Shown here: piece by piece, positions 26,304 through 37,031 of the stretch | Layout: each line of letters opens with the position of its first letter | Numbering within the stretch: the stretch's first letter is position 1 | NCBI RefSeq assembly: GCF_007747215.1 | Contig: NZ_CP036273.1 | Coordinates: forward strand, 1,160,322-1,224,321 | DNA from: Urbifossiella limnaea | GTDB taxonomy: Bacteria; Planctomycetota; Planctomycetia; Gemmatales; Gemmataceae | Direction of reading: 5' to 3' | Length of the DNA: 64,000 bases | Position numbers and translations under genes: made by a program | Notes under the pieces: model-generated | Databases searched by the model: none | The model's input: only the letters and a program-made list of their open reading frames with translations | Told to the model about the DNA's origin: nothing

Positions 26304-28628
26304 GTGAAGCCCTACCTGCTGCTCGCGCTCCTGTGGGCGCTCTACTTCCACCCGCTGCTCCTCCACCCCACGCAGACGCTGTTCGCCCCGTACTCCGACC
26401 TCCTCGCCGAGCACCTGCCCGCGCGGGTGTTCCTCGTCCGCGAGTGGCGCGCGACGGGGGAGTTGCCGCTGTGGAACCCGTACCACTTCTGCGGCTCGCC
26501 GTTCGTCCACGACATCCAGGTCGGCGCGTTCTACCCGCCGTACGCCGTCACGCTGCTGTTCCCCGAGTCGGCCGCCGGCGCCGTCATGAGTTGGGTGGTC
26601 GCGCTGCACGTCCTCGCGGCCGGCGGGTTCACGTTCTTCTACGCCCGCAGTAACGGCCTGGGTGAAGCGGGGAGCCTGGTCGCGGCGGTGGGGTGGATGT
26701 TCGCCGGGAAGTGGATCACGCACCTGCTTCTGGCCGGGCACACCATCACGATCGGACTGGCGTGGTTGCCGTTGGTGCTGGTCGGCCTCGAACGAGGCAC
26801 TCGCACGGGTGGCGTCGGCCCGGTGCTGGGGACGGGCGCGGCGCTGGCGCTGATGATCCTCGGCACGCACCCGCAGTGGACGTTCTACGCCGGCGTGTTC
26901 GCCGCCTTCTGGACCCTCCCGCTCGACCGCGCCGCGCTGCGCCGCTGGCTCCTGACCGGGGTGGGTGCTGTGGTCGTGGCGCTGGGGCTGACCGCGGTGC
27001 AACTGCTGCCGACGATTGAAGCCGCGGGGTTGTCGGCGCGACAGGCCGGGCTCACGTCGACGGAGGCGCTGCGCGTCGGCCTTCAGACGCTCACCGCGCT
27101 GGCCGGGCCGGGCGCGGCCTACGACCCGCCGGCGTCGTGGGAGGCCCGCGGGCTCGTCGGCCTGTACCTGCTCGCCGCGGCGCTCGTGGCCCCGACCCTC
27201 GGCGGGCCGCGGACGCGCTACCGCGCGTGGGTGCTGGCCGGGCTCGCCGTGTTCGGCCTCGGCGGCGCGGCGCTGGTGGACTGGCTCCCCGGCTTCAACC
27301 GGTTCCGCGTGCCGACACGAATGCTCTTGATCGCCGGCTTCCCGGTCGCCGTCCTCGCCGGCACCGCGACCGACGCCCTGGTCCGCGCGCAGTGGTCGGA
27401 GGCCGTTTTGGGCGTCGTCCGCCGACGGGTGTGGCTGGTGGTGGTGGTGGTCGCGCTGCCGGCCCTGCTGTGGGACTTCCCCGGCCTCCGACCCGGCCCG
27501 CGGTCGTGGGGGCGCGACGGGAGTTACTGGCTCGTCGCCGCGGGGCTGCTGCTGCCGGCCCTCGGGTGGTTCGCCGACACGCCGTCGCAGCGTACGTTCC
27601 GCTGGCTCGCGGTGCTCATCGGCGAGTCGTTCCTGCTCCTGCCCAACGTGGTCGTCCTGCCGCAGGCCACGATCTACCCGCCGACGCCGACGCTGGAGTA
27701 CGCCGCGACGCGGCTCGAACCCGGGGCAGGGCGGGTGATGGACTGGGACAGCGGCAGCGGTCCCGGCGACCGGCTGGCGGTGTTCGGCGGCGGGTCGCCG
27801 CTGCCGCTGGCCCGCGGGGTCGAGACGCCGCGCGGGTACAACCCGCTGGACGTGAAGCACTACCGGGAGTTCATCGGGTTCGTGGTCGGCGACCCGTCGC
27901 CGGTGGTCGGCATGAGTCCGGTCGCTCAGCCGGTGCTGCCGAACTTCGAGGTCGGTCACCCGCGGCTGTTCGACCTGCTGAACACCCGCTACCTGTCGGC
28001 CCCGGAGGCGCACCAGCCCGGACCGGGTTGGTCGGCGGTGACCGCCGACCCGGCCCCGCCGCTGATCCCCCCGCTCCCGCCGGACCCGCCCCCGCAGTTG
28101 TCGCCGCACGTTCTGTACGAACGGCCGTCGGCGTTCCCGCGGGCGTGGGTCGTGCCCGAGGCCCGGCCGATGCCACCCGCCGGCGCGTACGAGGCGCTCG
28201 TGAACACCGACCTCGGCCGCGTCGCGCTGCTCGCCACCGAGCGACACCTGCCGCCGCCCGCCGCATCGACGCCGGCCGCGCGAATCGCCGAGTACCGACC
28301 CAACCGCGTGCGCGTGAAACTGGCCGGCGACGGCGGCGGCTTCCTCGTGCTGGCCGACGTGTGGTACCCCGGCTGGGTGTGCCGCGTGGACGGCTCGGAA
28401 GTGCCGGTCGAGCGAGCCGACCACGCCTTCCGCGCCGTGCAGTTGCCCCCGGGGGCGAAGGAAGCCGTCTTCACCTTCGAGCCGCGGTCGTACCGGATCG
28501 GTTGGTGGGTGAGCGTGGCCGCGCTGGCGCTGGTCGGGGTGGCGGGTTTGTTCCGGCTGACCGTCAACCGTTCCCGCCGGTCGGGAGTTGTCACGCGTGC
28601 CGATTCGGTTTCCGGGCCGAGTGTGTGA
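26304..28628 (+). CDS. YfhO-like polytopic membrane protein (putative glycosyl/lipid transferase)
   Basis: N-terminal half has about 12 TM helices and a penultimate TM before a large C-terminal soluble domain. The architecture resembles the YfhO/ArnT-like superfamily. Family assignment is tentative. Confidence 0.6.
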   Translation: MKPYLLLALLWALYFHPLLLHPTQTLFAPYSDLLAEHLPARVFLVREWRATGELPLWNPYHFCGSPFVHDIQVGAFYPPYAVTLLFPESAAGAVMSWVVALHVLAAGGFTFFYARSNGLGEAGSLVAAVGWMFAGKWITHLLLAGHTITIGLAWLPLVLVGLERGTRTGGVGPVLGTGAALALMILGTHPQWTFYAGVFAAFWTLPLDRAALRRWLLTGVGAVVVALGLTAVQLLPTIEAAGLSARQAGLTSTEALRVGLQTLTALAGPGAAYDPPASWEARGLVGLYLLAAALVAPTLGGPRTRYRAWVLAGLAVFGLGGAALVDWLPGFNRFRVPTRMLLIAGFPVAVLAGTATDALVRAQWSEAVLGVVRRRVWLVVVVVALPALLWDFPGLRPGPRSWGRDGSYWLVAAGLLLPALGWFADTPSQRTFRWLAVLIGESFLLLPNVVVLPQATIYPPTPTLEYAATRLEPGAGRVMDWDSGSGPGDRLAVFGGGSPLPLARGVETPRGYNPLDVKHYREFIGFVVGDPSPVVGMSPVAQPVLPNFEVGHPRLFDLLNTRYLSAPEAHQPGPGWSAVTADPAPPLIPPLPPDPPPQLSPHVLYERPSAFPRAWVVPEARPMPPAGAYEALVNTDLGRVALLATERHLPPPAASTPAARIAEYRPNRVRVKLAGDGGGFLVLADVWYPGWVCRVDGSEVPVERADHAFRAVQLPPGAKEAVFTFEPRSYRIGWWVSVAALALVGVAGLFRLTVNRSRRSGVVTRADSVSGPSV

Positions 28629-28683
28629 CACGGACCCCCGGCGGCCGACGGCGGTCGGCTCGCCGGATGAATACACTTCCGCC

Positions 28684-29922
28684 ATGCCCACACGCCGCGC
28701 CTTCCTCGCCGCCGCCGCCGCGTCCCTCGCCGGCCCCGCTCGCGCACAGCCGGACCTTGCGCCGCTCGACCGGCTGATGACCGCCTTCCTCGCCGACCAC
28801 GCCGTGCCCGGCGGTGCCCTCGCCGTCGCCCGTCGCGGCCGGCTCGTCTACTCGCGCGGCTTCGGCCTCGCCGACCTCGACCGCAAGACGCCCGTCGGCC
28901 CCCGCAGCCTGTTCCGCATCGCCAGCGTCTCGAAGCCGCTCACAGCCGTAGCCGTGCTGCAACTCGTCGACGCCGGCAAGGTGCGACTCGACGACCCGGT
29001 GCTGCGGCACGTCACGCTCCGCCCGCACCTCGCGGCCGGCGCCGAGCCCGACGCCCGGCTGAAGGACGTGACCGTCCGCCACTGCCTGAACCACACCGGC
29101 GGCTGGGACCGCGACCGCTCCGGCGACCCCATCGGCATCCCCGCCCGCGTCGCCGCGGCACTCGGCGGTACGCCGCCGGTGTCGGCGACCGACGTGACCC
29201 GCTACACGCTCGGTCTCCGCCTCGACTCCGCCCCCGGCGAGCGGTACGCGTACTCGAACGTCGGCTACCTGCTGCTCGGCCGCGTCGTCGAAGCCGCGAG
29301 CGGGCTCCCCTACGAGCGCTACGTCAAGGAGCGCGTGCTGGCCCCGGTCGGCGTGACGACGGCGCGGCTGGGTCGCGCCCTGCCGGAGAACCGGCCGGCG
29401 GACGAGGTCCGCTACTACGACTCGAAGCGGAACACCGGCGTGTGCCTGTACCCGCCGCGGGCCGGCGAGCGCGTGCCGTTCCCCGACGGCGCCGGCAACC
29501 TCGAAGGCTACGAGGCCCACGGCGGCTGGGTGGCGTCGGCCGTAGACCTGGTGCGGTTCGCGTCGGCGTTCGACGACCCGGCGCGGTCGCCGCTGCTGTC
29601 GGCGGCGACCGCGCGGGCGATGTGGGAGCGGCCGGCGGGGCGCGCCGGCAACGACGCGGAGGGGAAGCCGAAGCCGGCGTTCTACGGCCTGGGCTGGGAC
29701 GTGCGGCCGGTCAACGGCGGTGTCAACGCCTGGCACTCCGGGCTCATCAGCGGCACCTCGACGCTGCTCGTGCGGCGCGCCGACGGGTTCTGCTGGGCGG
29801 TGCTGTTCAACACCGACCGCAGCTCGAACGGCCGCGTGCTGTCGGGGCTGATCGACCCGCTGGTTCACCGCGCCGTCGCCGAGGTGGAGGCGTGGCCGGC
29901 GGGTGAACCACTCGGGCGGTAG
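28684..29922 (+). CDS. serine hydrolase, class C beta-lactamase/PBP-related family, Tat signal
   Basis: RRAFLAAAAASLAG Tat motif. S-x-x-K active site in ASVSKPLTAVAVLQL. YSN motif (YAYSNVGY). Confidence 0.75.
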   Translation: MPTRRAFLAAAAASLAGPARAQPDLAPLDRLMTAFLADHAVPGGALAVARRGRLVYSRGFGLADLDRKTPVGPRSLFRIASVSKPLTAVAVLQLVDAGKVRLDDPVLRHVTLRPHLAAGAEPDARLKDVTVRHCLNHTGGWDRDRSGDPIGIPARVAAALGGTPPVSATDVTRYTLGLRLDSAPGERYAYSNVGYLLLGRVVEAASGLPYERYVKERVLAPVGVTTARLGRALPENRPADEVRYYDSKRNTGVCLYPPRAGERVPFPDGAGNLEGYEAHGGWVASAVDLVRFASAFDDPARSPLLSAATARAMWERPAGRAGNDAEGKPKPAFYGLGWDVRPVNGGVNAWHSGLISGTSTLLVRRADGFCWAVLFNTDRSSNGRVLSGLIDPLVHRAVAEVEAWPAGEPLGR

Positions 29923-29928
29923 CGCGGC

Positions 29929-30234
29929 TCAGCGGTGGTAGTGGCCGTTGTGGTAGTGGCCGCCGCCCCAGCCGGGGGTGAAGCCGCCGTAGCGGTAGCC
30001 GGACTGGTAGCCGCCGTAGCCGAAGCCCGGCGAGTAGACGCGCGGCGAGCCGAAGTTCAGGTTGAACGACAGGCCCGGCGAGTAGCTGCGGTAGCCGTAG
30101 GCCGGGTAGCTGGGGTACGCCGGTACGACGTGGTAGTGGTTGCGGTGCGGGACCAGCACGGCCGGCTGGGCCGCTGCGGACCCGGCCCCGATGCCAACAG
30201 CCGCGACGGCCGCGGCGAGAATGCTGAGCTTCAT
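29929..30234 (-). CDS. small secreted Gly/Tyr-rich protein
   Basis: Signal peptide MKLSILAAAVAAVGIGAGSAAAQP. Mature part YPSYPAYGYRSYSPG...GYGGYQSGYRYGGF...HYHNGHYHR. High GC3. Confidence 0.5.
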   Translation of the reverse strand: MKLSILAAAVAAVGIGAGSAAAQPAVLVPHRNHYHVVPAYPSYPAYGYRSYSPGLSFNLNFGSPRVYSPGFGYGGYQSGYRYGGFTPGWGGGHYHNGHYHR

Positions 30235-30305
30235 GGTGAGTCTCCTGCGGGGGGAATCCCCGCACGAGAAACGCTCAAGTCAAGTGGGCTTGCGCTCCGA
30301 CGGCC

Positions 30306-33300
30306 TCACGGCTCACCCGCCCGCGGCGCCGCCAGCGGCCGCAGAAGCTCCGGGTCCAGCAGGAACAGCTGCCGCCGGCCCGCCACGTCGGCCGCGTCCA
30401 CCCACACCTTGTCGCGGCCGCGGAATGCCTCCGCTACCGCCCGCGCCGCCAGCCGCGAGTCGATCGCCGCCCGCCGGTCGGCCAGCAGTCGAAGCCGCCG
30501 CGTCGCCAGGTCGGCGTCCACCGCAGCCGCGGCCTCGCCGGCCGCCACCCGTTTGGCCCGCTCCGCCGCGAGGGCGGCCCCCTCCTCGGCCGACACCGCC
30601 GAGCGCGCCCGCACCCACGCGCCGAACGCCGTCGCCTGCGCCTCCGCGTCCTTCACCTGCCGGTTCGCCTCCGTCCGCGCCCGGCTCACCGTCCGCTCCG
30701 CCTCCTCCGTCGCCCGCCGCACCGTCCGCAGGGCGTCGGCCTCGGCGTCGTTGAGCACGCGGTCGCGCTCCTGGATCGCCTTCGCCACCGAGTGGTACGA
30801 CTCCACGACCTCGCGCGGCGGGTGCAGGTCGTGCAGGGTGAAGCCGTCCAGCGCGATGCCGTGACCGGTGGGAGCGGCCGCGTCGAGGCGCCGTCGCAGC
30901 CGCGCCGTCACCTCCGCTTCAAGGCCGGCCCGGCCGACGGTGAGCAACTCGCCGAACCGGCCGCCGGCCACCAGCTCGCGCACGACCGCCTCGGCCGCGG
31001 AGCGCACCAGCCCGTCGGGGTCGGCGGGGCCGAACAGGAACTGCCGCGCGTCGGCGACGTGGTAGCGCACCGTGCCTTGAGCCACCACCAGGTCGCCGTC
31101 GCCGGTGATCATCACCTCCTCGTCGGTGACGGGGCGGGCGCCGTCGCCGTGGCTGCTGGCCCACGTCAGCTCGCCGCCGGGGCGACGCAGGCGGTCCGGT
31201 TGCGGCGCGGCCGCCCGCACTTCGGCGAGCACCTCGCGGAAGCCGACAGCCACCGTGCGCACCTCGGCGGTGCGGACGCGCGTCACCGTCTCGACCGGCC
31301 ACGGCCAGCGGACGTGGAGCCCGGGCGGCAGGTCGGCGGCGACGGCGCCGAAGCGCTGCACCACGCCGACCTCGCCGGGTTCGATCTGCGTGAAGCACGT
31401 CAGCCCCCAGCCGACCAGCAGCGCCGCCGCGGCCGCGCCGCCGACCCACTTCCACCGGTGACCGATTTCGTGCAGCAGGTCGTCGACGTGAACCGTGTTC
31501 ACCCAGCGGTCGAAGCCGCGGGCCGCGGTGCGGAGGCGCGACAAGCCGGGACTGTCGGCGGTGCGGTCGAACGCGAGCAGGCGCATCGAGTTCAGCAGCA
31601 CCAGGAGCGAGCCGAGCTGGTGGTACAGGACGCCGACCAGCGGCGCCTTCTCGTACCACCCCGGGCCGGTCGCCAGCAGCGGCCACAGCCAGCCGGTGAG
31701 GACGATGCCCACGAGGTTGACGCCGAACCCGAAGCCCAGAATGTTCTGGCGGATGATCTTGACCGTTTCGCGGGACAGCCGCACGAGCAGCGGCAGCGGC
31801 CGGAGCGGCTCGCCCATCAGCACGATGTCGCCGGCCTCGGCGGCTACGTCCGTGCCGCCGACGGCAATACCAACCGCGGCGCGGGCCAGCGCGGGGGCGT
31901 CGTTCACTCCGTCGCCGACGAAGCAGGTCAGGGTGGGGGAAGCGGCGGCGACGAGTTCGGCCTTTTGTCCCGGCAGCAGCTCGGCGTGAACGTCCGTCAC
32001 AGCCACCTGCGCGGCCACGGCCCGCGCCGCGGCGGAGCGGTCGCCCGTCAGTAGCGCCACCGGCGCGATGCCGAGCGCCCGCAGCTCGGCGATCACCCCC
32101 GCCGCCTCGGGGCGCACCCGGTCCCGAGCCCCGACCGCGCCGACAATTGCGCCGTCCTTCGACACGAGAAGCGAACTCTGACCCGACTCGTCGAGTTGGC
32201 TCAGGGCCGCGTCCGCTTCTTCGGGTATGGCGACGCCCTTCTCCGCCAGCAACCGCCGCGTGCCGACCAGGATCGACGCCCCGCCGGCCGTCGCGCTCAC
32301 GCCGCCGCCGGGGAACGCCTCAAAGTTCTCGACCGCCGGCGGCGTCAGGCCGCGCGCGGCGGCTGCGGCCAGCACCACCCGCGCCAGTGGGTGCTCACTT
32401 CGTGCCTCGGCGGCGGCCGCGAGCGCCAGCACGTCGTCGGCCGTGGCACCGTTCAGGGGCAGCACGTCGCCGAGTTCGAGTTTCCCTTCCGTGAGCGTGC
32501 CGGTCTTGTCGAACGCGAACGCGGTCACGCCGGCGAGCCGCTCCAGCGCGGAGCCGCCCTTGATGAACACACCCGTACCCGCGAGCCGACCCAGCGCGGC
32601 GATCACGGCCGCGGGCGTTGCCAGGATGAGGGCGCACGGGCACGCCACCACCAGCACCCCGAGCGCCGGATACGCCGCCACCCGTGCGGCTGCGGACACA
32701 GTCGGCCGAGGCACGCCTTCGGCCGGCGTCGCGGCGAGCTGGAAGCCGATGTTGGCGACGAACGTGACCAGCGCCAGCACCAGCACCGCCGGCAGGAAGT
32801 AGCGGGCCAGTCGGTCGGCGTGCCGCTCTAGCGGCGCCTTGTCCTTCAGAGCCGCGGCCGTCAGATCGATCACCTGCCCGGCCACCGTTTCTTTCGCCAG
32901 CTTCTTCGCCTCGACGGTCAGGCTCCCGCCCATCACGATGCTACCGGCCATCACCGCGTCGCCGGGCGCCTTGTCCGCGGGCAGGCTCTCGCCGGTCAGC
33001 GCGGAGGCGTCGACGGCGGCGCGGCCGTCGGTCACGACGCCGTCGGCGGGGACGCGGCCGCCGGGCTTGACGACGACGCGGTCGCCCGGGAGCAGGTCGG
33101 CGGTGAAGGTGCGGACTTCCTCGCCGTCGCGGAGCACCCAGCAGCGGCGCGGGAACAGCTCGGCCAGCGACCCGAGCGCGCGCTGGGTGCGGGCGAAGGT
33201 GACGGCTTCGAGGCACTCGCCGGCCAGGCCGATGAACACGACCTCGGCGGCGACGAGTTCCTCGCGCAGCAGGATGGCCGCGAGGCACGCCACGGCCAGC

Positions 33301-33575
33301 GCCAGGTCGGAGCCAATGCGGCCGTCGAAGAGCGATTCGAGCGAGTTGTACAGGACGCGGGCGCCGCCCACGACCGCGGCGAGAAGTGCGTAGCGGTAGC
33401 CGAACGGCTCGCGGCTCCAGGTCGGCACCTCGATGCCGAACCCGGCGAGCCAGCCGACGAGCGGCGGCCCGAGGTCGGCGGCGAGGAGCGCGCCGACGAG
33501 CGCGGTGAGGGCGTACAGCCCGACGGGGGACTGCGGCCGGAACGGCTCGTCGGCGCCGGAGATCTCGCGGTGCAT
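30306..33575 (-). CDS. heavy-metal-translocating P-type ATPase (P1B, no N-terminal HMA domain) fused in-frame to a C-terminal SPFH/band-7 (HflK-like) module
   Basis: CPC motif ACPCALILATP, DKTGTLT, TGDRSAAA, GDGVNDAPAL and eight TM helices. After the last ATPase TM there is no stop: a about 40-aa linker, a new TM (WVGGAAAAALLVGWGLTCF), EPGEVGVVQRFG and a coiled-coil-rich SPFH-type tail to the stop at 30306. Start chosen at MHREISG (33575); the alternative is 33695. Confidence 0.7.
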   Translation of the reverse strand: MHREISGADEPFRPQSPVGLYALTALVGALLAADLGPPLVGWLAGFGIEVPTWSREPFGYRYALLAAVVGGARVLYNSLESLFDGRIGSDLALAVACLAAILLREELVAAEVVFIGLAGECLEAVTFARTQRALGSLAELFPRRCWVLRDGEEVRTFTADLLPGDRVVVKPGGRVPADGVVTDGRAAVDASALTGESLPADKAPGDAVMAGSIVMGGSLTVEAKKLAKETVAGQVIDLTAAALKDKAPLERHADRLARYFLPAVLVLALVTFVANIGFQLAATPAEGVPRPTVSAAARVAAYPALGVLVVACPCALILATPAAVIAALGRLAGTGVFIKGGSALERLAGVTAFAFDKTGTLTEGKLELGDVLPLNGATADDVLALAAAAEARSEHPLARVVLAAAAARGLTPPAVENFEAFPGGGVSATAGGASILVGTRRLLAEKGVAIPEEADAALSQLDESGQSSLLVSKDGAIVGAVGARDRVRPEAAGVIAELRALGIAPVALLTGDRSAAARAVAAQVAVTDVHAELLPGQKAELVAAASPTLTCFVGDGVNDAPALARAAVGIAVGGTDVAAEAGDIVLMGEPLRPLPLLVRLSRETVKIIRQNILGFGFGVNLVGIVLTGWLWPLLATGPGWYEKAPLVGVLYHQLGSLLVLLNSMRLLAFDRTADSPGLSRLRTAARGFDRWVNTVHVDDLLHEIGHRWKWVGGAAAAALLVGWGLTCFTQIEPGEVGVVQRFGAVAADLPPGLHVRWPWPVETVTRVRTAEVRTVAVGFREVLAEVRAAAPQPDRLRRPGGELTWASSHGDGARPVTDEEVMITGDGDLVVAQGTVRYHVADARQFLFGPADPDGLVRSAAEAVVRELVAGGRFGELLTVGRAGLEAEVTARLRRRLDAAAPTGHGIALDGFTLHDLHPPREVVESYHSVAKAIQERDRVLNDAEADALRTVRRATEEAERTVSRARTEANRQVKDAEAQATAFGAWVRARSAVSAEEGAALAAERAKRVAAGEAAAAVDADLATRRLRLLADRRAAIDSRLAARAVAEAFRGRDKVWVDAADVAGRRQLFLLDPELLRPLAAPRAGEP

Positions 33576-33732
33576 TGCGGCTGTTGTACGGCCGCGCCGC
33601 CCCCCGGGTTGAAGGAACTTGGTGATCCTCTCGCCAGCCGCCTCGAAGCGGAACGCGAACGACGGCCACACCTTCCCGAGGGCGTGGAACGTCACCGTCT
33701 TCGGACTCGCACGTCGTCGCCTACGGTCGGGG

Positions 33733-34737
33733 TCAGCGGCGGAGACCCGGGCGGGCGCCCGACCCGGCGCGGATCCGCTCCACGTCGCTCTGCAACTTCT
33801 CGGACGCCGTCGGCCCGCCGGGGGCGGTCACCTTCGGCCACTGGAAGGAGAAGACCCGTCCGCCCAAACCGGCGAGCCGGCCCGGCTCGATGCCCGCCAC
33901 CGCCGGCCGGTACTGCACGAGTACGTACTCGGTGGACACGCCGACGGCCTTGCCCAGTTCCCCGGCGCCCGGGAGGCCGGGGGTCAGGGGAAGGACCTCG
34001 GCCCGGAGCGTGGTGCCGCCGGGAATGTCGAGCAGGAGCGTGCCGTCCCCGTTCGGCACGGGCGGGCTCACCTTCAGGACGACGGTCGCCAGCCCGGCCC
34101 GGCCGCTCTTGTCGTCCGGCCCGACCACCCGGACCTCGACCACCTGTTCGACCTTCACGTCGTAGGCCGGCGACTGGGCCGCGGCCGGGGCGGGCTGGAA
34201 GGCCGTGCGCATGACCAGCGCCTGGAACGCCGGCCCGGCCTCGCACGGCACCCAGTAGTGCTTGTGGTCGCGCTTCCGGTGGACGTGCACGGGGCACCGC
34301 GGCGGGTCGTAGGACTCGACGAACAGGCCGGGGTCGTGGGCGAATGCCGCGTACAGCTCGTACACGTCCGGCCGGTCCACGACCGGGTCGGCGTGGAAGC
34401 TCAGCTGCCGCTGCCGGCCCGAACTCCCGCCGGCGACGAACCCGCTGGTGACGGTCCGCATGATCCCCTCGACCGGGCCGGTGTCGCGGCTCAGCCCGGT
34501 GGACGCGCCGAGGGTGCCGGCCACGTCGTCGGTCGTTTGGGCGAGGATGTCGCGGTAGCCGAGATGGACGTACACCTGGTACGTGCGGGCGCGGATCAGG
34601 TTGTCGATCGCCTGCTCCGTGTACAGGTCGCACACGGCGACGCGGAACTGGTCGGTGTCGCGGGCGAGCTGCCGGGCGGTACACCCGGCCCCGGCAGCCA
34701 GGACCATGGCCCCCAGGAGGAAGCGGAATCCGCGCAT
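33733..34737 (-). CDS. putative lipoprotein (hypothetical)
   Basis: MRGFRFLLGAMVLAAGAGC with a lipobox-like LAAGAGC. 334 aa with high GC3. Immediately upstream of the ATPase-SPFH gene on the same strand. Confidence 0.55.
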   Translation of the reverse strand: MRGFRFLLGAMVLAAGAGCTARQLARDTDQFRVAVCDLYTEQAIDNLIRARTYQVYVHLGYRDILAQTTDDVAGTLGASTGLSRDTGPVEGIMRTVTSGFVAGGSSGRQRQLSFHADPVVDRPDVYELYAAFAHDPGLFVESYDPPRCPVHVHRKRDHKHYWVPCEAGPAFQALVMRTAFQPAPAAAQSPAYDVKVEQVVEVRVVGPDDKSGRAGLATVVLKVSPPVPNGDGTLLLDIPGGTTLRAEVLPLTPGLPGAGELGKAVGVSTEYVLVQYRPAVAGIEPGRLAGLGGRVFSFQWPKVTAPGGPTASEKLQSDVERIRAGSGARPGLRR

Positions 34738-34831
34738 GGCTACCCCGCGTCTGAGTCGAACGGCTTGACGAATTTTTCGTCAGGCACGGTCGTGCGACTT
34801 GAGCGGATTCTGCCCGTTGCGCGGCCGCGGC

Positions 34832-35515
34832 TCACTCCGCGGGCCGGCTCATGGCGTTGAGCGCCGTCTTGAGCGCCGTCACGTTCGTGGCCGTCTCCGG
34901 CCGGCGGTCGGCGCGGTATTCGGTGTTCGTGGCCGGGTCGGGGCGGATGACCGATCCGTCGAGGGCGACGCCGGCGAACAGCCCGCGGCTGCGCGAGTAC
35001 GACAGCACCTCGGCCCGCAGCGGCAGGTCCGTCGCCGCCATCGCCTGCCGGCCGACCGGCCCCGCGGCCACGCCGGCGTCGGCGCCGAGCGTCAGCTTGG
35101 CCTTTCCTTCCAGGACGCGGTCGAGGCTCTTCTGGTCGCGGAAGACGAGCACCACGTCGGTGGCCTCGACGCCGGCCTGGAAGCCGACCGAGCCGCCGCC
35201 GAAGTTCACGAACACCGGGTCGGCCCAACCGTCGGCGGTGCGGGCGAGCGCGACGCCGTGCCCGCCGCTGCCGGCGACGATGAACCCGGCCTTCACGACG
35301 CGCGGGATCACGACGACGCCCTTCGCGTCGGCGAGCAGCGTCGGCGGGATGCTCTTGTCCGGGATCCGGGAGAGTTCTGCGAGCACGGTCGTGGCGGCTG
35401 TGAGCGTCTCGGTCGGCGGCGGCGCGAGGCGGTCGCGGAGCCGCTCGCGCGGCGGCTGCGCGGTGACGCACGCGGCCCCGGACAGAACGACTGCGGCGAG
35501 GAGGAGGCGGGTCAT
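34832..35515 (-). CDS. SYLF (Ysc84/DUF500) lipid-binding domain protein, secreted
   Basis: Signal peptide MTRLLLAAVVLSGAACVTAQ. GVVVIPRVVKAGFIVAGSGGHGVALAR...GGGSVGFQAGVEATDVVLVF matches the SYLF domain. Confidence 0.65.
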   Translation of the reverse strand: MTRLLLAAVVLSGAACVTAQPPRERLRDRLAPPPTETLTAATTVLAELSRIPDKSIPPTLLADAKGVVVIPRVVKAGFIVAGSGGHGVALARTADGWADPVFVNFGGGSVGFQAGVEATDVVLVFRDQKSLDRVLEGKAKLTLGADAGVAAGPVGRQAMAATDLPLRAEVLSYSRSRGLFAGVALDGSVIRPDPATNTEYRADRRPETATNVTALKTALNAMSRPAE

Positions 35516-35629
35516 GTCGGGGTCTCCGTTGGGGGTTGCGGTTCGTTGCTCAGGATGTGGCACGAAACGCAGCAACCCCCGGACCGGGGGCGAAGATACT
35601 CGCGTATTTCCGCCGGGGGCAAGGTGGAC

Positions 35630-35672
35630 TTGGGCGGGCTGGACGGGCTGGACGGGGTGGACGGGGTGGGCG
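35630..35672. repeat. tandem repeat (GGACGGG[C/G]T)x4, G-tract rich
   Basis: GGGCTGGACGGGCTGGACGGGGTGGACGGGGTGGGCGGG in the intergenic region between the SYLF and Cys-rich genes. Confidence 0.5.
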
Positions 35673-35726
35673 GGAGTTGGTGCGGTGCGGGTAGGTCGCC
35701 GGTGGCGACCTACCCGCACGCGGGTT

Positions 35727-36254
35727 TTAGTGGTTCAGGTAGCTGTCGTAGTTACAGGGGTTGAACGGGGCGGTGGCGCCGGAGCCGATCACCGGGTGGT
35801 TGCAGTTGCCGTGGCCGAGAGCCTTCGGGCCGCACGGGGCGAAGAACGACCGGCACGAGCCGAACACCACGCCCAGGTCCGACCGCAGCGAGCCGCAGCC
35901 GTTGTTGCACGGCTGGCCGTACCCGCACTTGGTGCCGAGGTAGCCGCCGGTCGCGTTCATCACGAAGCCGCGGTGGGCGGTGCCGCCGGGGCCGCAGTTC
36001 GTGCAGCCGCCGGTGCCGGTCACGACGGTCGTGCCCGGGGCCGGGGCCACGGGCGTGCTCGCCGCGGCGGCCGGCGGCAGGGAGCCGGGGGCGGCCACGG
36101 TCGGGGCGGTCGGCCCCGGGGCCGGCTGAGCCACGACCTGCTGCGGGACGACGACCGGGGCCGGGGTCTGGGCCGAAGCCGAGCCGGCGAGCGCGGCGGC
36201 GCCGACGACCGCGGCGGCGAGCCGGCCCCAAATCCGAAGACGCATGACGTTCAC
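35727..36254 (-). CDS. secreted Cys-rich protein (hypothetical)
   Basis: Signal peptide MRLRIWGRLAAAVVGAAALAGSASAQ. C-terminus has 12 Cys (GGCTNCGPGG...KCGYGQPCNNGCGS...CNHPVIGSG..NPCNYD). Confidence 0.5.
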   Translation of the reverse strand: MNVMRLRIWGRLAAAVVGAAALAGSASAQTPAPVVVPQQVVAQPAPGPTAPTVAAPGSLPPAAAASTPVAPAPGTTVVTGTGGCTNCGPGGTAHRGFVMNATGGYLGTKCGYGQPCNNGCGSLRSDLGVVFGSCRSFFAPCGPKALGHGNCNHPVIGSGATAPFNPCNYDSYLNH

Positions 36255-36517
36255 CTTTCCTTGTCGGGGCGATGCCGCTTCCGTGGCGGCTCACCTCCCC
36301 GTTCGGCGGCCGCGGCCCGCGGCGCTCGCCGTTTCGCGCCGCGCCGCCAACGGATTGTGCGCCCGGCGGTGGCGTGGGGGCGGTCGTGCCGCGGGGCGCG
36401 CCCGGGCGGCGGCGGCCGGCGGTGCGGGTTGGATCGGCTGGCGCGGTCGGCCGGGGGAATCTCCTTCCGACCGCGACCGGGTCGCGAGTAGCTTCGACGT
36501 CCGACCGAGGAGCCGAC

Positions 36518-36691
36518 ATGACCCGGGCGCGCGTGACCGTGTGGGCCGTCGTGGTGCTGCTCGCGGGGTGCGGCCGCCCACGGCTGCCGCGGAACGCGGT
36601 GGCGCCGCGCGACCGGGTCGAACTGGAGGCGCGGCCGCGACCCGCGTCGTGTCCGGCGCCGACGGCCGGGCGCGGCGGGTGGAACTCTTGA
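36518..36691 (+). CDS. possible small lipoprotein (57 aa)
   Basis: GAGGAG SD 6 bp upstream of the ATG. MTRARVTVWAVVVLLAGCGRP has a lipobox. GC3 is high. Confidence 0.3.
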   Translation: MTRARVTVWAVVVLLAGCGRPRLPRNAVAPRDRVELEARPRPASCPAPTAGRGGWNS

Positions 36692-36771
36692 CGATCACGC
36701 CGATGGGATCGGTTCCGCAGCCGCCACCCCAGGAAGTCGCTGGACCGCCGGCACCCTGACGGGAGTAACGC

Positions 36772-36998
36772 ATGCGCCGCGGATGGTCTCTGCTCGTGCT
36801 GCTCTTCGCGGTCGCGGCGGCGGACGCCCGGCCGACCTGGACGGCGACGCCCCGGCCGGCAATTACCGCCTCGTCTTTTGGCACGAGAAGGTGGGCTTCA
36901 AGGACGGAAAGGTCGGCCGGTTCTGCACGCTGGTGGCGGTCGTCGCCGGGAAGGACGTCATGATGGCGCTGCCGGCGGTGCCGTTCGACGTGCGCTGA
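36772..36998 (+). pseudogene. small secreted protein gene with apparent 1-nt frameshift after the signal peptide
   Basis: GGGAG SD plus ATG and signal peptide MRRGWSLLVLLFAVAAADA with high GC3 in frame A up to about 36832. High GC3 then continues only in the -1 frame (ADLDGDAPAGNYRLVFWHEKVGFKDGKVGRFCTLVAVVAGKDVMMALPAVPFDVR*), ending at 36998. Confidence 0.35.
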
Positions 36999-37031
36999 GC
37001 CGGCGAGCGCCAGAAACGGGGTGTCGGCCAC

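Follow-up and report, generated by a model that had tools for sequence, protein, structure and literature searches.

We analysed a stretch of 64,000 nt from the genome of Urbifossiella limnaea (contig NZ_CP036273.1; the whole stretch is referred to as the window) and found that a gene on its minus strand, at 30306–33575, encodes a single polypeptide of 1089 aa in which a P1B-type heavy-metal ATPase is joined in frame to an HflK-like SPFH membrane module. The protein probably builds a ring or cage of the HflK/C type to which a metal exporter is covalently tethered.

The list of open reading frames (ORFs) gives a frame of 1129 aa from a GTG codon (30306–33695, minus strand). The N-terminus MHRE, which starts at the ATG at 33575, is invariant across 60 orthologues, and we therefore consider this ATG to be the true start; the resulting fusion protein is encoded by one ORF at 30306–33575. 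Because long chance ORFs are common at the G+C content of the window (~73%), we checked the codon bias of the frame. The G+C fraction at third codon positions (GC3) remains at 0.83–1.00 in one single frame over the entire length of the gene, the ATPase/SPFH junction included, so that a hidden frameshift is excluded. In comparison with the closest relative, a metagenome-assembled genome (MAG; locus L003), the ratio of nonsynonymous to synonymous substitution rates (dN/dS) is 0.17 for the ATPase, 0 for the linker (dN = 0), 0.09 for the ninth transmembrane (TM) helix with the SPFH domain and 0.11 for the coiled coil. Every module of the protein is under purifying selection. The unbroken frame and the single-ORF orthologues described below agree with the first-pass annotation, which had proposed an in-frame fusion with no stop between its halves.

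30306–33575, minus strand: complete coding sequence of the fusion, 1089 aa plus stop codon at 30306–30308; supported by single-ORF orthologues and continuous GC3

The N-terminal part is, as far as its motifs tell, an HMA-less P1B-type heavy-metal ATPase with an intact catalytic apparatus. Pfam assigns E1-E2_ATPase to aa 140–332 (171 bits) and Hydrolase to aa 351–566 (95 bits), both above the gathering scores, and the heavy-metal P-type ATPase model TIGR01525 matches aa 91–666 with 521.4 bits against a cut-off of 346.25. The motifs named at the outset (CPC, DKTGT, TGD and GDGxND) were all located in the translated protein: TGES lies at aa 194–197, CPC at 312–314, DKTGT at 356–360, TGD at 510–512 and GDGVND at 554–559, and the catalytic motifs are conserved across orthologues. 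No Pfam match to an HMA domain was obtained in the 1089-aa protein, as had been claimed for its N-terminus; other fusion clades carry His-rich N-terminal tails, e.g., MSSHEPHDHH. Hydropathy and an AlphaFold2 (AF2) model agree on eight ATPase TM helices (MA, MB and M1–M6). The full-length model has a mean predicted local distance difference test (pLDDT) score of 83.8, with most of the ATPase above 90, and in a Foldseek search with this model the ATPase superposes on P1B pumps only, with TM-scores of up to 0.76 normalised to the target.

33525–33575, minus strand: N-terminal cytoplasmic tail, aa 1–17, MHREISGADEPF..., no HMA; possible short metal-binding tail
31572–33524, minus strand: predicted P1B-type ATPase core, aa 18–668, with MA, MB (GG kink at 70–71), M1–M6 and the A, P and N domains
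32634–32642, minus strand: CPC motif of M4, aa 312–314, part of the predicted transmembrane metal site
32496–32510, minus strand: DKTGT catalytic phosphorylation motif, aa 356–360, invariant in the alignment of 46 fusions and in Gemmatales orthologues
31899–31916, minus strand: GDGVND hinge motif, aa 554–559, with variable insertions in the preceding loop of orthologues
31608–31625, minus strand: YHQLGS motif of M6, aa 651–656, His652 aligned to His657 of sCoaT HEGxT

The predicted metal site is highly conserved. C312 and C314 are invariant in an alignment of 46 full-length fusion proteins, as are H652 and N620 (46/46). M6 reads YHQLGSLLVLLNSMRLL; throughout the Gemmatales family alignment, its Y, H, Q, G and S do not vary. 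M5 reads GFGVNLVGIV; it keeps T(x)5QN and an Asn and has neither the Tyr and Pro typical of Cu(I) pumps nor the Lys typical of Zn pumps. Cu(I) pumps of subclass P1B-1 are marked by YN(x)4P in M5 and MxxSS in M6, and P1B-2 pumps by T(x)5QN(x)7K in M5 and DxG(x)7N in M6 (PMC4932525). Both parts of the P1B-1 signature were looked for and are absent from the protein; the P1B-2 signature is present only as T(x)5QN, with Val619 at the Lys position and His652, by manual register, at the M6 Asp position. The closest correspondence is to the P1B-4 pump sCoaT (PDB 7qbz), whose alignment pairs VLVHEGSTLVVVANALRLLAF with VLYHQLGSLLVLLNSMRLLAF. Both proteins have eight TM helices, an MA/MB pair with a GG kink and an M6 His at the same position and spacing (H-x9-N); in sCoaT this residue, His657, is invariant and essential among P1B-4 pumps and was proposed to act as a built-in counter-ion (PMC8880997; PMC10654040). 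A classical heavy-metal-binding domain is likewise missing from sCoaT, which has a short N-terminal tail rich in metal ligands (PMC8880997). The fusion differs from sCoaT in reading CPC instead of SPC in M4 and HQxGS instead of HEGxT in M6, where the Glu proposed to aid ion release in sCoaT is replaced by Gln, and sCoaT carries no C-terminal extension. Overall, the predicted membrane site of CPC, M5 Asn and M6 His-Gln resembles that of the broad divalent-metal P1B-4 group more closely than those of Cu(I) or Zn(II) pumps.

The extra TM helix that had been placed ~40 aa beyond the end of the ATPase is visible both as a hydropathy peak (aa 711–729) and as an AF2 helix (708–725). The linker that leads to it is modelled as two helices (676–694 and 697–706; pLDDT 61–74). 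The SPFH start motif EPGEVGVVQRFG follows at aa 732–743, and Pfam detects the expected C-terminal Band_7 domain (PF01145) at aa 730–948 with 73.2 bits, compared to a cut-off of 23.6. A profile of the family matches E. coli HflK with E = 1.7e-34, HflC with 3.6e-6, QmcA with 3.9e-10 and stomatin with ~1e-6; by these values, HflK is the best-matching SPFH subfamily for the module. The ninth helix and the SPFH start align to the TM region of E. coli HflK (residues 80–142), and the first coiled-coil helix (CC1) aligns to residues 239–334. In the AF2 model of the module, the TM helix leads into the SPFH domain, after which come a helix of 70 residues, a short one, a further long one and a tail; a Foldseek search with this model returned HflK chains first (7vhq_E, 9cz2), followed by cage subunits of stomatin, erlin, prohibitin and flotillin. 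As modelled, the C-terminal module has an HflK-like fold. Its SPFH domain contains a disordered, low-pLDDT insertion at about aa 782–812 that varies between lineages. The tail motif RDKVxIDAxxxxGRRxLxLxDPE (aa 1054–1076) is conserved in orthologues and may resemble the strand region at the C-terminus of E. coli HflK; the HMM alignment to HflK extends as far as residue 334. Since the ATPase has eight predicted helices and a cytoplasmic C-terminus, the ninth helix would carry the chain to the periplasm, where the SPFH/coiled-coil module should therefore lie.

31455–31571, minus strand: predicted cytoplasmic linker from M6 to the ninth TM helix, aa 669–707, ending in a conserved HRWK (LH...HRWK)
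31395–31454, minus strand: ninth TM helix, aa 708–727, equivalent of the single N-terminal TM helix of HflK
30822–31394, minus strand: SPFH (Band_7) domain, aa 728–918, presumably periplasmic
30309–30815, minus strand: coiled coil and C-terminal tail, AF2 helices aa 921–992, 996–1011 and 1016–1050

To determine the distribution of the fusion, we scanned a profile of the C-terminal module against a collection with one genome per species. The scan yielded 279 matching stretches, and the best 80 loci were inspected; ortholog and neighbourhood counts were taken over 82 related loci. Almost all of the best 80 loci are labelled as Gemmataceae or other Planctomycetota (Gemmata, Urbifossiella, Frigoriglobus, Limnoglobus, Fimbriiglobus), and a few MAGs among them bear other, probably wrong, taxon labels. 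The top locus belongs to MAG STL-PLA24, with 95–97% identity to the window. In ~60 of the 82 loci, the query is covered from aa 1 to ~1085 of 1089 by a single tblastn high-scoring segment pair, and the orthologue lies inside one stop-to-stop ORF of 1070–1250 aa; the remaining loci are mostly interrupted by contig ends. The cultured species Gemmata algarum has an intact fusion gene (L015). An exhaustive HMMER search over 1.8 billion cluster representatives, of which the best 150 matches were examined, gave at least 45 full-length fusions as representatives of 50%-identity clusters (987–1152 aa). DKTGT and GDGxND are found in all 45, CPC in M4 is almost universal among them, and the M6 pattern H[QE]xx[GS]S...N..RL is present in many. 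Members beyond Gemmatales include an unclassified Planctomycetota MAG, Abditibacteriales and Candidatus Sumerlaeota. Judged from these homologues, the ATPase-SPFH fusion is the rule in Gemmatales and occurs in other phyla as well. The first-pass annotation had called it unusual, a description that holds relative to the searchable literature and not with respect to its frequency in nature.

In many lineages, the fusion gene is accompanied by further SPFH genes. An HflC-like gene follows it directly in 40 of the 82 loci, starting within a few bases of its stop codon and in many cases overlapping it as ATGA; a second HflK-like gene comes next in 23 of them. The HflC-like partner in locus L081 scores 145.6 bits on TIGR01932, above the cut-off of 134.4; the second HflK-like protein remains below the HflK equivalog cut-off. 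The cultured Fimbriiglobus ruber also encodes an HflC-like partner, and several other lineages, including Limnoglobus, keep the HflC-like gene only. The trio of fusion, HflC-like and HflK-like genes is also present in a Sumerlaeota locus and on an Abditibacteriales-like contig and is, for this reason, probably ancestral. When the fusion proteins are placed on a tree by neighbour joining, essentially a single clade holds the loci devoid of adjacent partners; the window belongs to it, together with Gemmata, Frigoriglobus and Urbifossiella. A search for an unlinked HflC of the Gemmata clade, with an HflC-like protein of Limnoglobus as query, gave at least 120 listed matches, and all of those listed are of the Limnoglobus/Fimbriiglobus type.

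The same module is also found attached to other exporters. We classified its 150 closest representatives by their fused partner: ATPase sequence is present in 104, a CDF (Cation_efflux) transporter is fused to the module in 5, and 41 are fragments of up to 453 aa. None of these 150 relatives is demonstrably a free-standing SPFH protein. The CDF::Band_7 fusions (P0245, P0247, P0248, P0250, P0254; L086:5001–8839, L087:2953–6117) are devoid of the usual cytoplasmic C-terminal domain of CDF proteins; NCBI and JGI name them only ‘FtsH protease activity modulator HflK’ or ‘HflK’, and one example is MDP8248239.1 from Candidatus Tritonobacter lacicola (phylum Auribacterota, PVC group). A more distant relative, P0119 (L085:2579–6870), joins an ArsP_1-type permease to Band_7 and has an extra Band_7 gene upstream at 371–1363. 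Two Band_7 genes lie after the CDF::Band_7 and ArsP_1::Band_7 genes. According to these domain assignments, one and the same slot of the cassette is filled by members of three unrelated metal(loid) exporter classes.

From these data, we propose the following mechanism. The N-terminal two thirds of the protein would act as a P1B-type heavy-metal export pump with eight TM helices. After M6, the chain would continue for ~40 residues in the cytoplasm, cross the membrane for the ninth time and enter the periplasm as an HflK-type SPFH domain, coiled coil and C-terminal motif. By analogy with E. coli HflK/HflC, the SPFH module would oligomerise at the periplasmic side of the membrane to give a ring or cage, and several copies of the pump would as a consequence be tethered to one membrane microdomain. 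In many related lineages, the module may assemble with the HflC-like and often the second HflK-like subunit encoded downstream; in the lineage of the window, where the locus holds no partner genes, the ring would form from the fusion alone or with unlinked partners. The purpose would most likely be clustering and stabilisation of the exporter, possibly with a coupling of metal release to a confined periplasmic space. What the analysis shows is a conserved fusion with intact motifs and an HflK-like fold, accompanied elsewhere by partner genes and paralleled by SPFH fusions of further metal exporters; topology, oligomeric cage, metal and physiological purpose are the parts of the model that we infer. 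A bolder extension is conceivable, and we put it forward only tentatively: that these loci encode multi-phylum ‘client-loaded’ SPFH cages of exporter-fused HflK-like, HflC-like and HflK-like subunits, in which a ring of exporters discharges into, or is corralled by, a closed periplasmic vault that would serve as an FtsH-independent microcompartment for metal efflux or handling. The exporter in such a three-gene cassette would be a P1B-ATPase, a CDF transporter or an ArsP-type permease.

Several points weigh against a cage with tethered exporters. The clade of the window has no HflC-like or HflK-like partner within 10 kb of the fusion gene, and no other SPFH gene was found anywhere in the 64-kb window. 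The hflK model TIGR01933 scores the module at 115.5–118.4 bits (aa 730–985), below the equivalog cut-off of 159.4. The M4/M5/M6 signature, as read from the alignments, matches none of the defined P1B subclasses (P1B-1, P1B-2 or P1B-4) in full. The cage itself is drawn by analogy, and in a rough, uncomputed geometric estimate at least 12 P-type ATPase headpieces around a cage of ~20 nm would be crowded. Finally, internal initiation or proteolytic cleavage may separate the two halves.

Four other explanations have to be compared with this proposal. The most elementary is that loss of a stop codon, or a frameshift that compensates, merged adjacent ATPase and HflK genes in the assembly. Copies split between two frames do exist at four loci (Gemmata obscuriglobus LR593888, L002, L019 and L063), the G. 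obscuriglobus locus is annotated as two genes (a 639-aa ATPase and a 498-aa ‘protease modulator HflK’), and the longest homologue from a word-indexed protein search had 805 aa. The split points (aa 118, ~245 and 543–551) all fall within the ATPase and none falls at the ATPase/SPFH junction, where the survey of related genomes revealed neither a stop codon nor a frameshift. The annotated ‘HflK’ of G. obscuriglobus starts inside the ATPase, just past GDGxND, and so contains M5–M6. Around 60 independent assemblies carry one uninterrupted ORF, 45 full-length cluster representatives are known, and GC3 and dN/dS fit one coding frame. An assembly artefact is thus extremely improbable, and the fusion is, on the strength of its orthologues, a real and conserved single gene. 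A separate question is the transported metal. Most homologues are named ‘Cu+-exporting ATPase’ by JGI. Sequence matches in the PDB comprise CopA, HMA4, sCoaT and ZntA (E 1e-81 to 1e-96) as well as LpCopA; by E-value, archaeal CopA and plant HMA4 are the best of these, and CPC stands in M4, all as expected for a Cu(I) exporter of the CopA type. Such a pump would have YN(x)4P and MxxSS where the fusion has FGVN...I in M5 and YHQLGS in M6, and an HMA domain is missing. The CopA alignments end before M6, whereas sCoaT is the only solved pump aligned through M6, and the sister fusions involve CDF transporters, which carry divalent metals. Since the Cu-type model TIGR01511 remains below its cut-off (370 vs. 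397 bits) while the Cd family model TIGR01512 exceeds it (395 vs. 313.5 bits), a divalent transition metal appears more likely as the substrate than Cu(I), and the copper assignment is in our view unlikely.

The two further explanations concern the scaffold. The fused module may be a true HflK that cages FtsH together with HflC, with the pump attached for its quality control or turnover, or for recruitment of FtsH. FtsH degrades the P-type ATPase MgtA unless a small protein protects MgtA, and the best matches of the module in both sequence and fold are E. coli HflK in FtsH-HflK/C complexes; moreover, the downstream partner in L081 passes the curated HflC model. Against this, no ftsH gene was present in the operons inspected, the fused module and the second HflK-like protein both stay under the HflK equivalog cut-off, and the same fusion recurs in three unrelated exporter classes, which argues for a common feature of metal export rather than for turnover of one substrate. 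We consider an FtsH-centred function to be a less convincing account with a rather low probability. Still less probable is that no cage is formed and that SPFH acts in cis, as a periplasmic regulatory, metal-sensing or gating domain over the pump exit of each monomer. The window's clade does keep the module under purifying selection without adjacent partner genes, and the lineage-variable disordered insertion in the SPFH domain would suit such a role. Opposed to it are the conservation of both the coiled-coil helices and the C-terminal motif, which form the wall and roof of solved SPFH cages, the finding that all solved full-length SPFH relatives retrieved by Foldseek are large oligomers, and partner SPFH genes that are probably ancestral across phyla. 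The tethered-exporter cage therefore remains the explanation that we favour.

Several observations on the homologues accompany these results. In G. obscuriglobus, an insertion of ~170 nt with a frameshift (L001:7700–8001; LR593888.1, ~8447040–8447341) lies in the loop just before GDGxND. The same loop is where the L019 copy is split, and it holds in-frame insertions of differing length in further orthologues, which marks it as an insertion hot spot. The copy of G. obscuriglobus, the type species, may be a pseudogene or contain an assembly error. The idea that its insertion is a repeat element also present in the window was rejected, as no DNA similarity was found. Systematic truncation of the ATPase, which the length limit of the word-indexed search could have indicated, was likewise rejected on the basis of the full-length HMMER matches and the genome loci. 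The length column of that search is misleading: the same collection holds proteins of 1000–1150 aa, and the cause is a search limitation or fragmentary contigs.

The surroundings of the gene in the window are poorly conserved. The first-pass annotation had described the fusion gene as the distal member of a five-gene cluster. Same-strand genes for a Cys-rich protein, a SYLF/Ysc84 protein (PF04366, confirmed by Pfam) and a putative lipoprotein do lie upstream; the fusion gene is not distal, because a small gene for a His-rich protein follows it on the same strand. As functional context, the cluster was rejected, since conservation of the neighbours extends no further than MAG L003, which is nearly identical; this MAG has the genes for the SYLF and Cys-rich proteins beside the fusion and no lipoprotein gene. 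In the window, the lipoprotein gene (33733–34737, minus strand; 334 aa) lies between the SYLF and fusion genes; in the 95%-identical L003 it is absent and the SYLF gene abuts the fusion gene, which points to a recent insertion or deletion. The downstream gene (29929–30234, minus strand) starts 71 nt from the fusion gene and encodes a secreted protein of 101 aa without a Pfam match, in which His, Tyr and Gly are abundant (HRNHYH... GGGHYHNGHYHR). From its composition, this protein could be a periplasmic metal-binding peptide. As a conserved partner of the fusion it was rejected, as it occurs only in the two closest relatives (L003 and L004). Further downstream, on the opposite strand, lie genes for a beta-lactamase-family serine hydrolase with a Tat-like signal (28588–29922, plus strand; PF00144, 235 bits) and a large YfhO-like membrane protein (26304–28628, plus strand), both common to L003 and unrelated to the fusion gene. 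Around the fusion gene, Pfam confirms only the SYLF/Ysc84 domain and the beta-lactamase-family gene, and a search for a metal riboswitch or any other Rfam element gave nothing credible within 29500–37000.

Both halves belong to known superfamilies, the P1B-ATPases and the SPFH proteins; their combination is undescribed in the searchable literature. A full-text literature search, with one survey of P1B diversity outside its reach, found no description of an ATPase-SPFH fusion or an exporter-SPFH cassette, and databases hold many copies of the fusion under generic names. Comparison to characterised systems shows which features are shared. The E. coli HflK/HflC cage with FtsH inside (PDB 7vhp, 7wi3, 9cz2, 9paw) has the same arrangement, in which one TM helix connects the cytoplasmic N-terminal side to SPFH and a long coiled coil with a C-terminal motif follows, and the HflC-like gene directly downstream of the fusion in many lineages recalls hflK-hflC operons. 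Where HflK has a short cytoplasmic tail at its N-terminus, the fusion carries a whole P-type ATPase of 668 aa. Many fusion operons encode three SPFH subunits instead of two, with ftsH unlinked, and the fusion in the window differs further from HflK by having no HflC partner at the locus and a score below the curated HflK cut-off.

Scaffolding of P1B-ATPases is known from Mycobacterium tuberculosis, where PacL-Ctp effluxosomes cluster these pumps into membrane platforms and clustering is needed for activity (PMC13460109). As in the fusion, a P1B-ATPase is joined to or dependent on a single-pass membrane scaffold from the same locus. PacL proteins belong to DUF1490, are small and bear Glu/Ala repeats on the cytoplasmic side; they are separate polypeptides that bind the cytoplasmic metal-binding domain of the pump, whereas the scaffold of the fusion is an SPFH module, presumably periplasmic and covalently attached. 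A further precedent, in which an SPFH oligomer engages a membrane transport protein, is the eukaryotic stomatin cage with aquaporin-1 (PDB 9zd2); the stomatin assembly is non-covalent, with SPFH on the cytoplasmic side, a hairpin anchor and a channel as client instead of a primary pump. The CDF::Band_7 and ArsP_1::Band_7 proteins share the HflK-like SPFH clade, the order of N-terminal exporter and C-terminal SPFH and the two downstream Band_7 genes. These contain secondary transporters, in contrast to the ATP-driven pump described here, and are uncharacterised and annotated only as ‘HflK’.

The roles and clients of bacterial SPFH cages are still largely open beyond FtsH-HflK/C. If the cage reading is true, the fusion offers a natural case of an SPFH scaffold with a built-in client transporter; with the client written into the polypeptide, its identity, stoichiometry and orientation become directly testable. 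The unclassified metal-site signature CPC / N / HQxGS could extend the classification of P1B-ATPases. The recurrence of such fusions in three unrelated metal(loid) exporter classes, and of their partner genes across several phyla, suggests that SPFH microdomains and metal efflux are linked in a general way.

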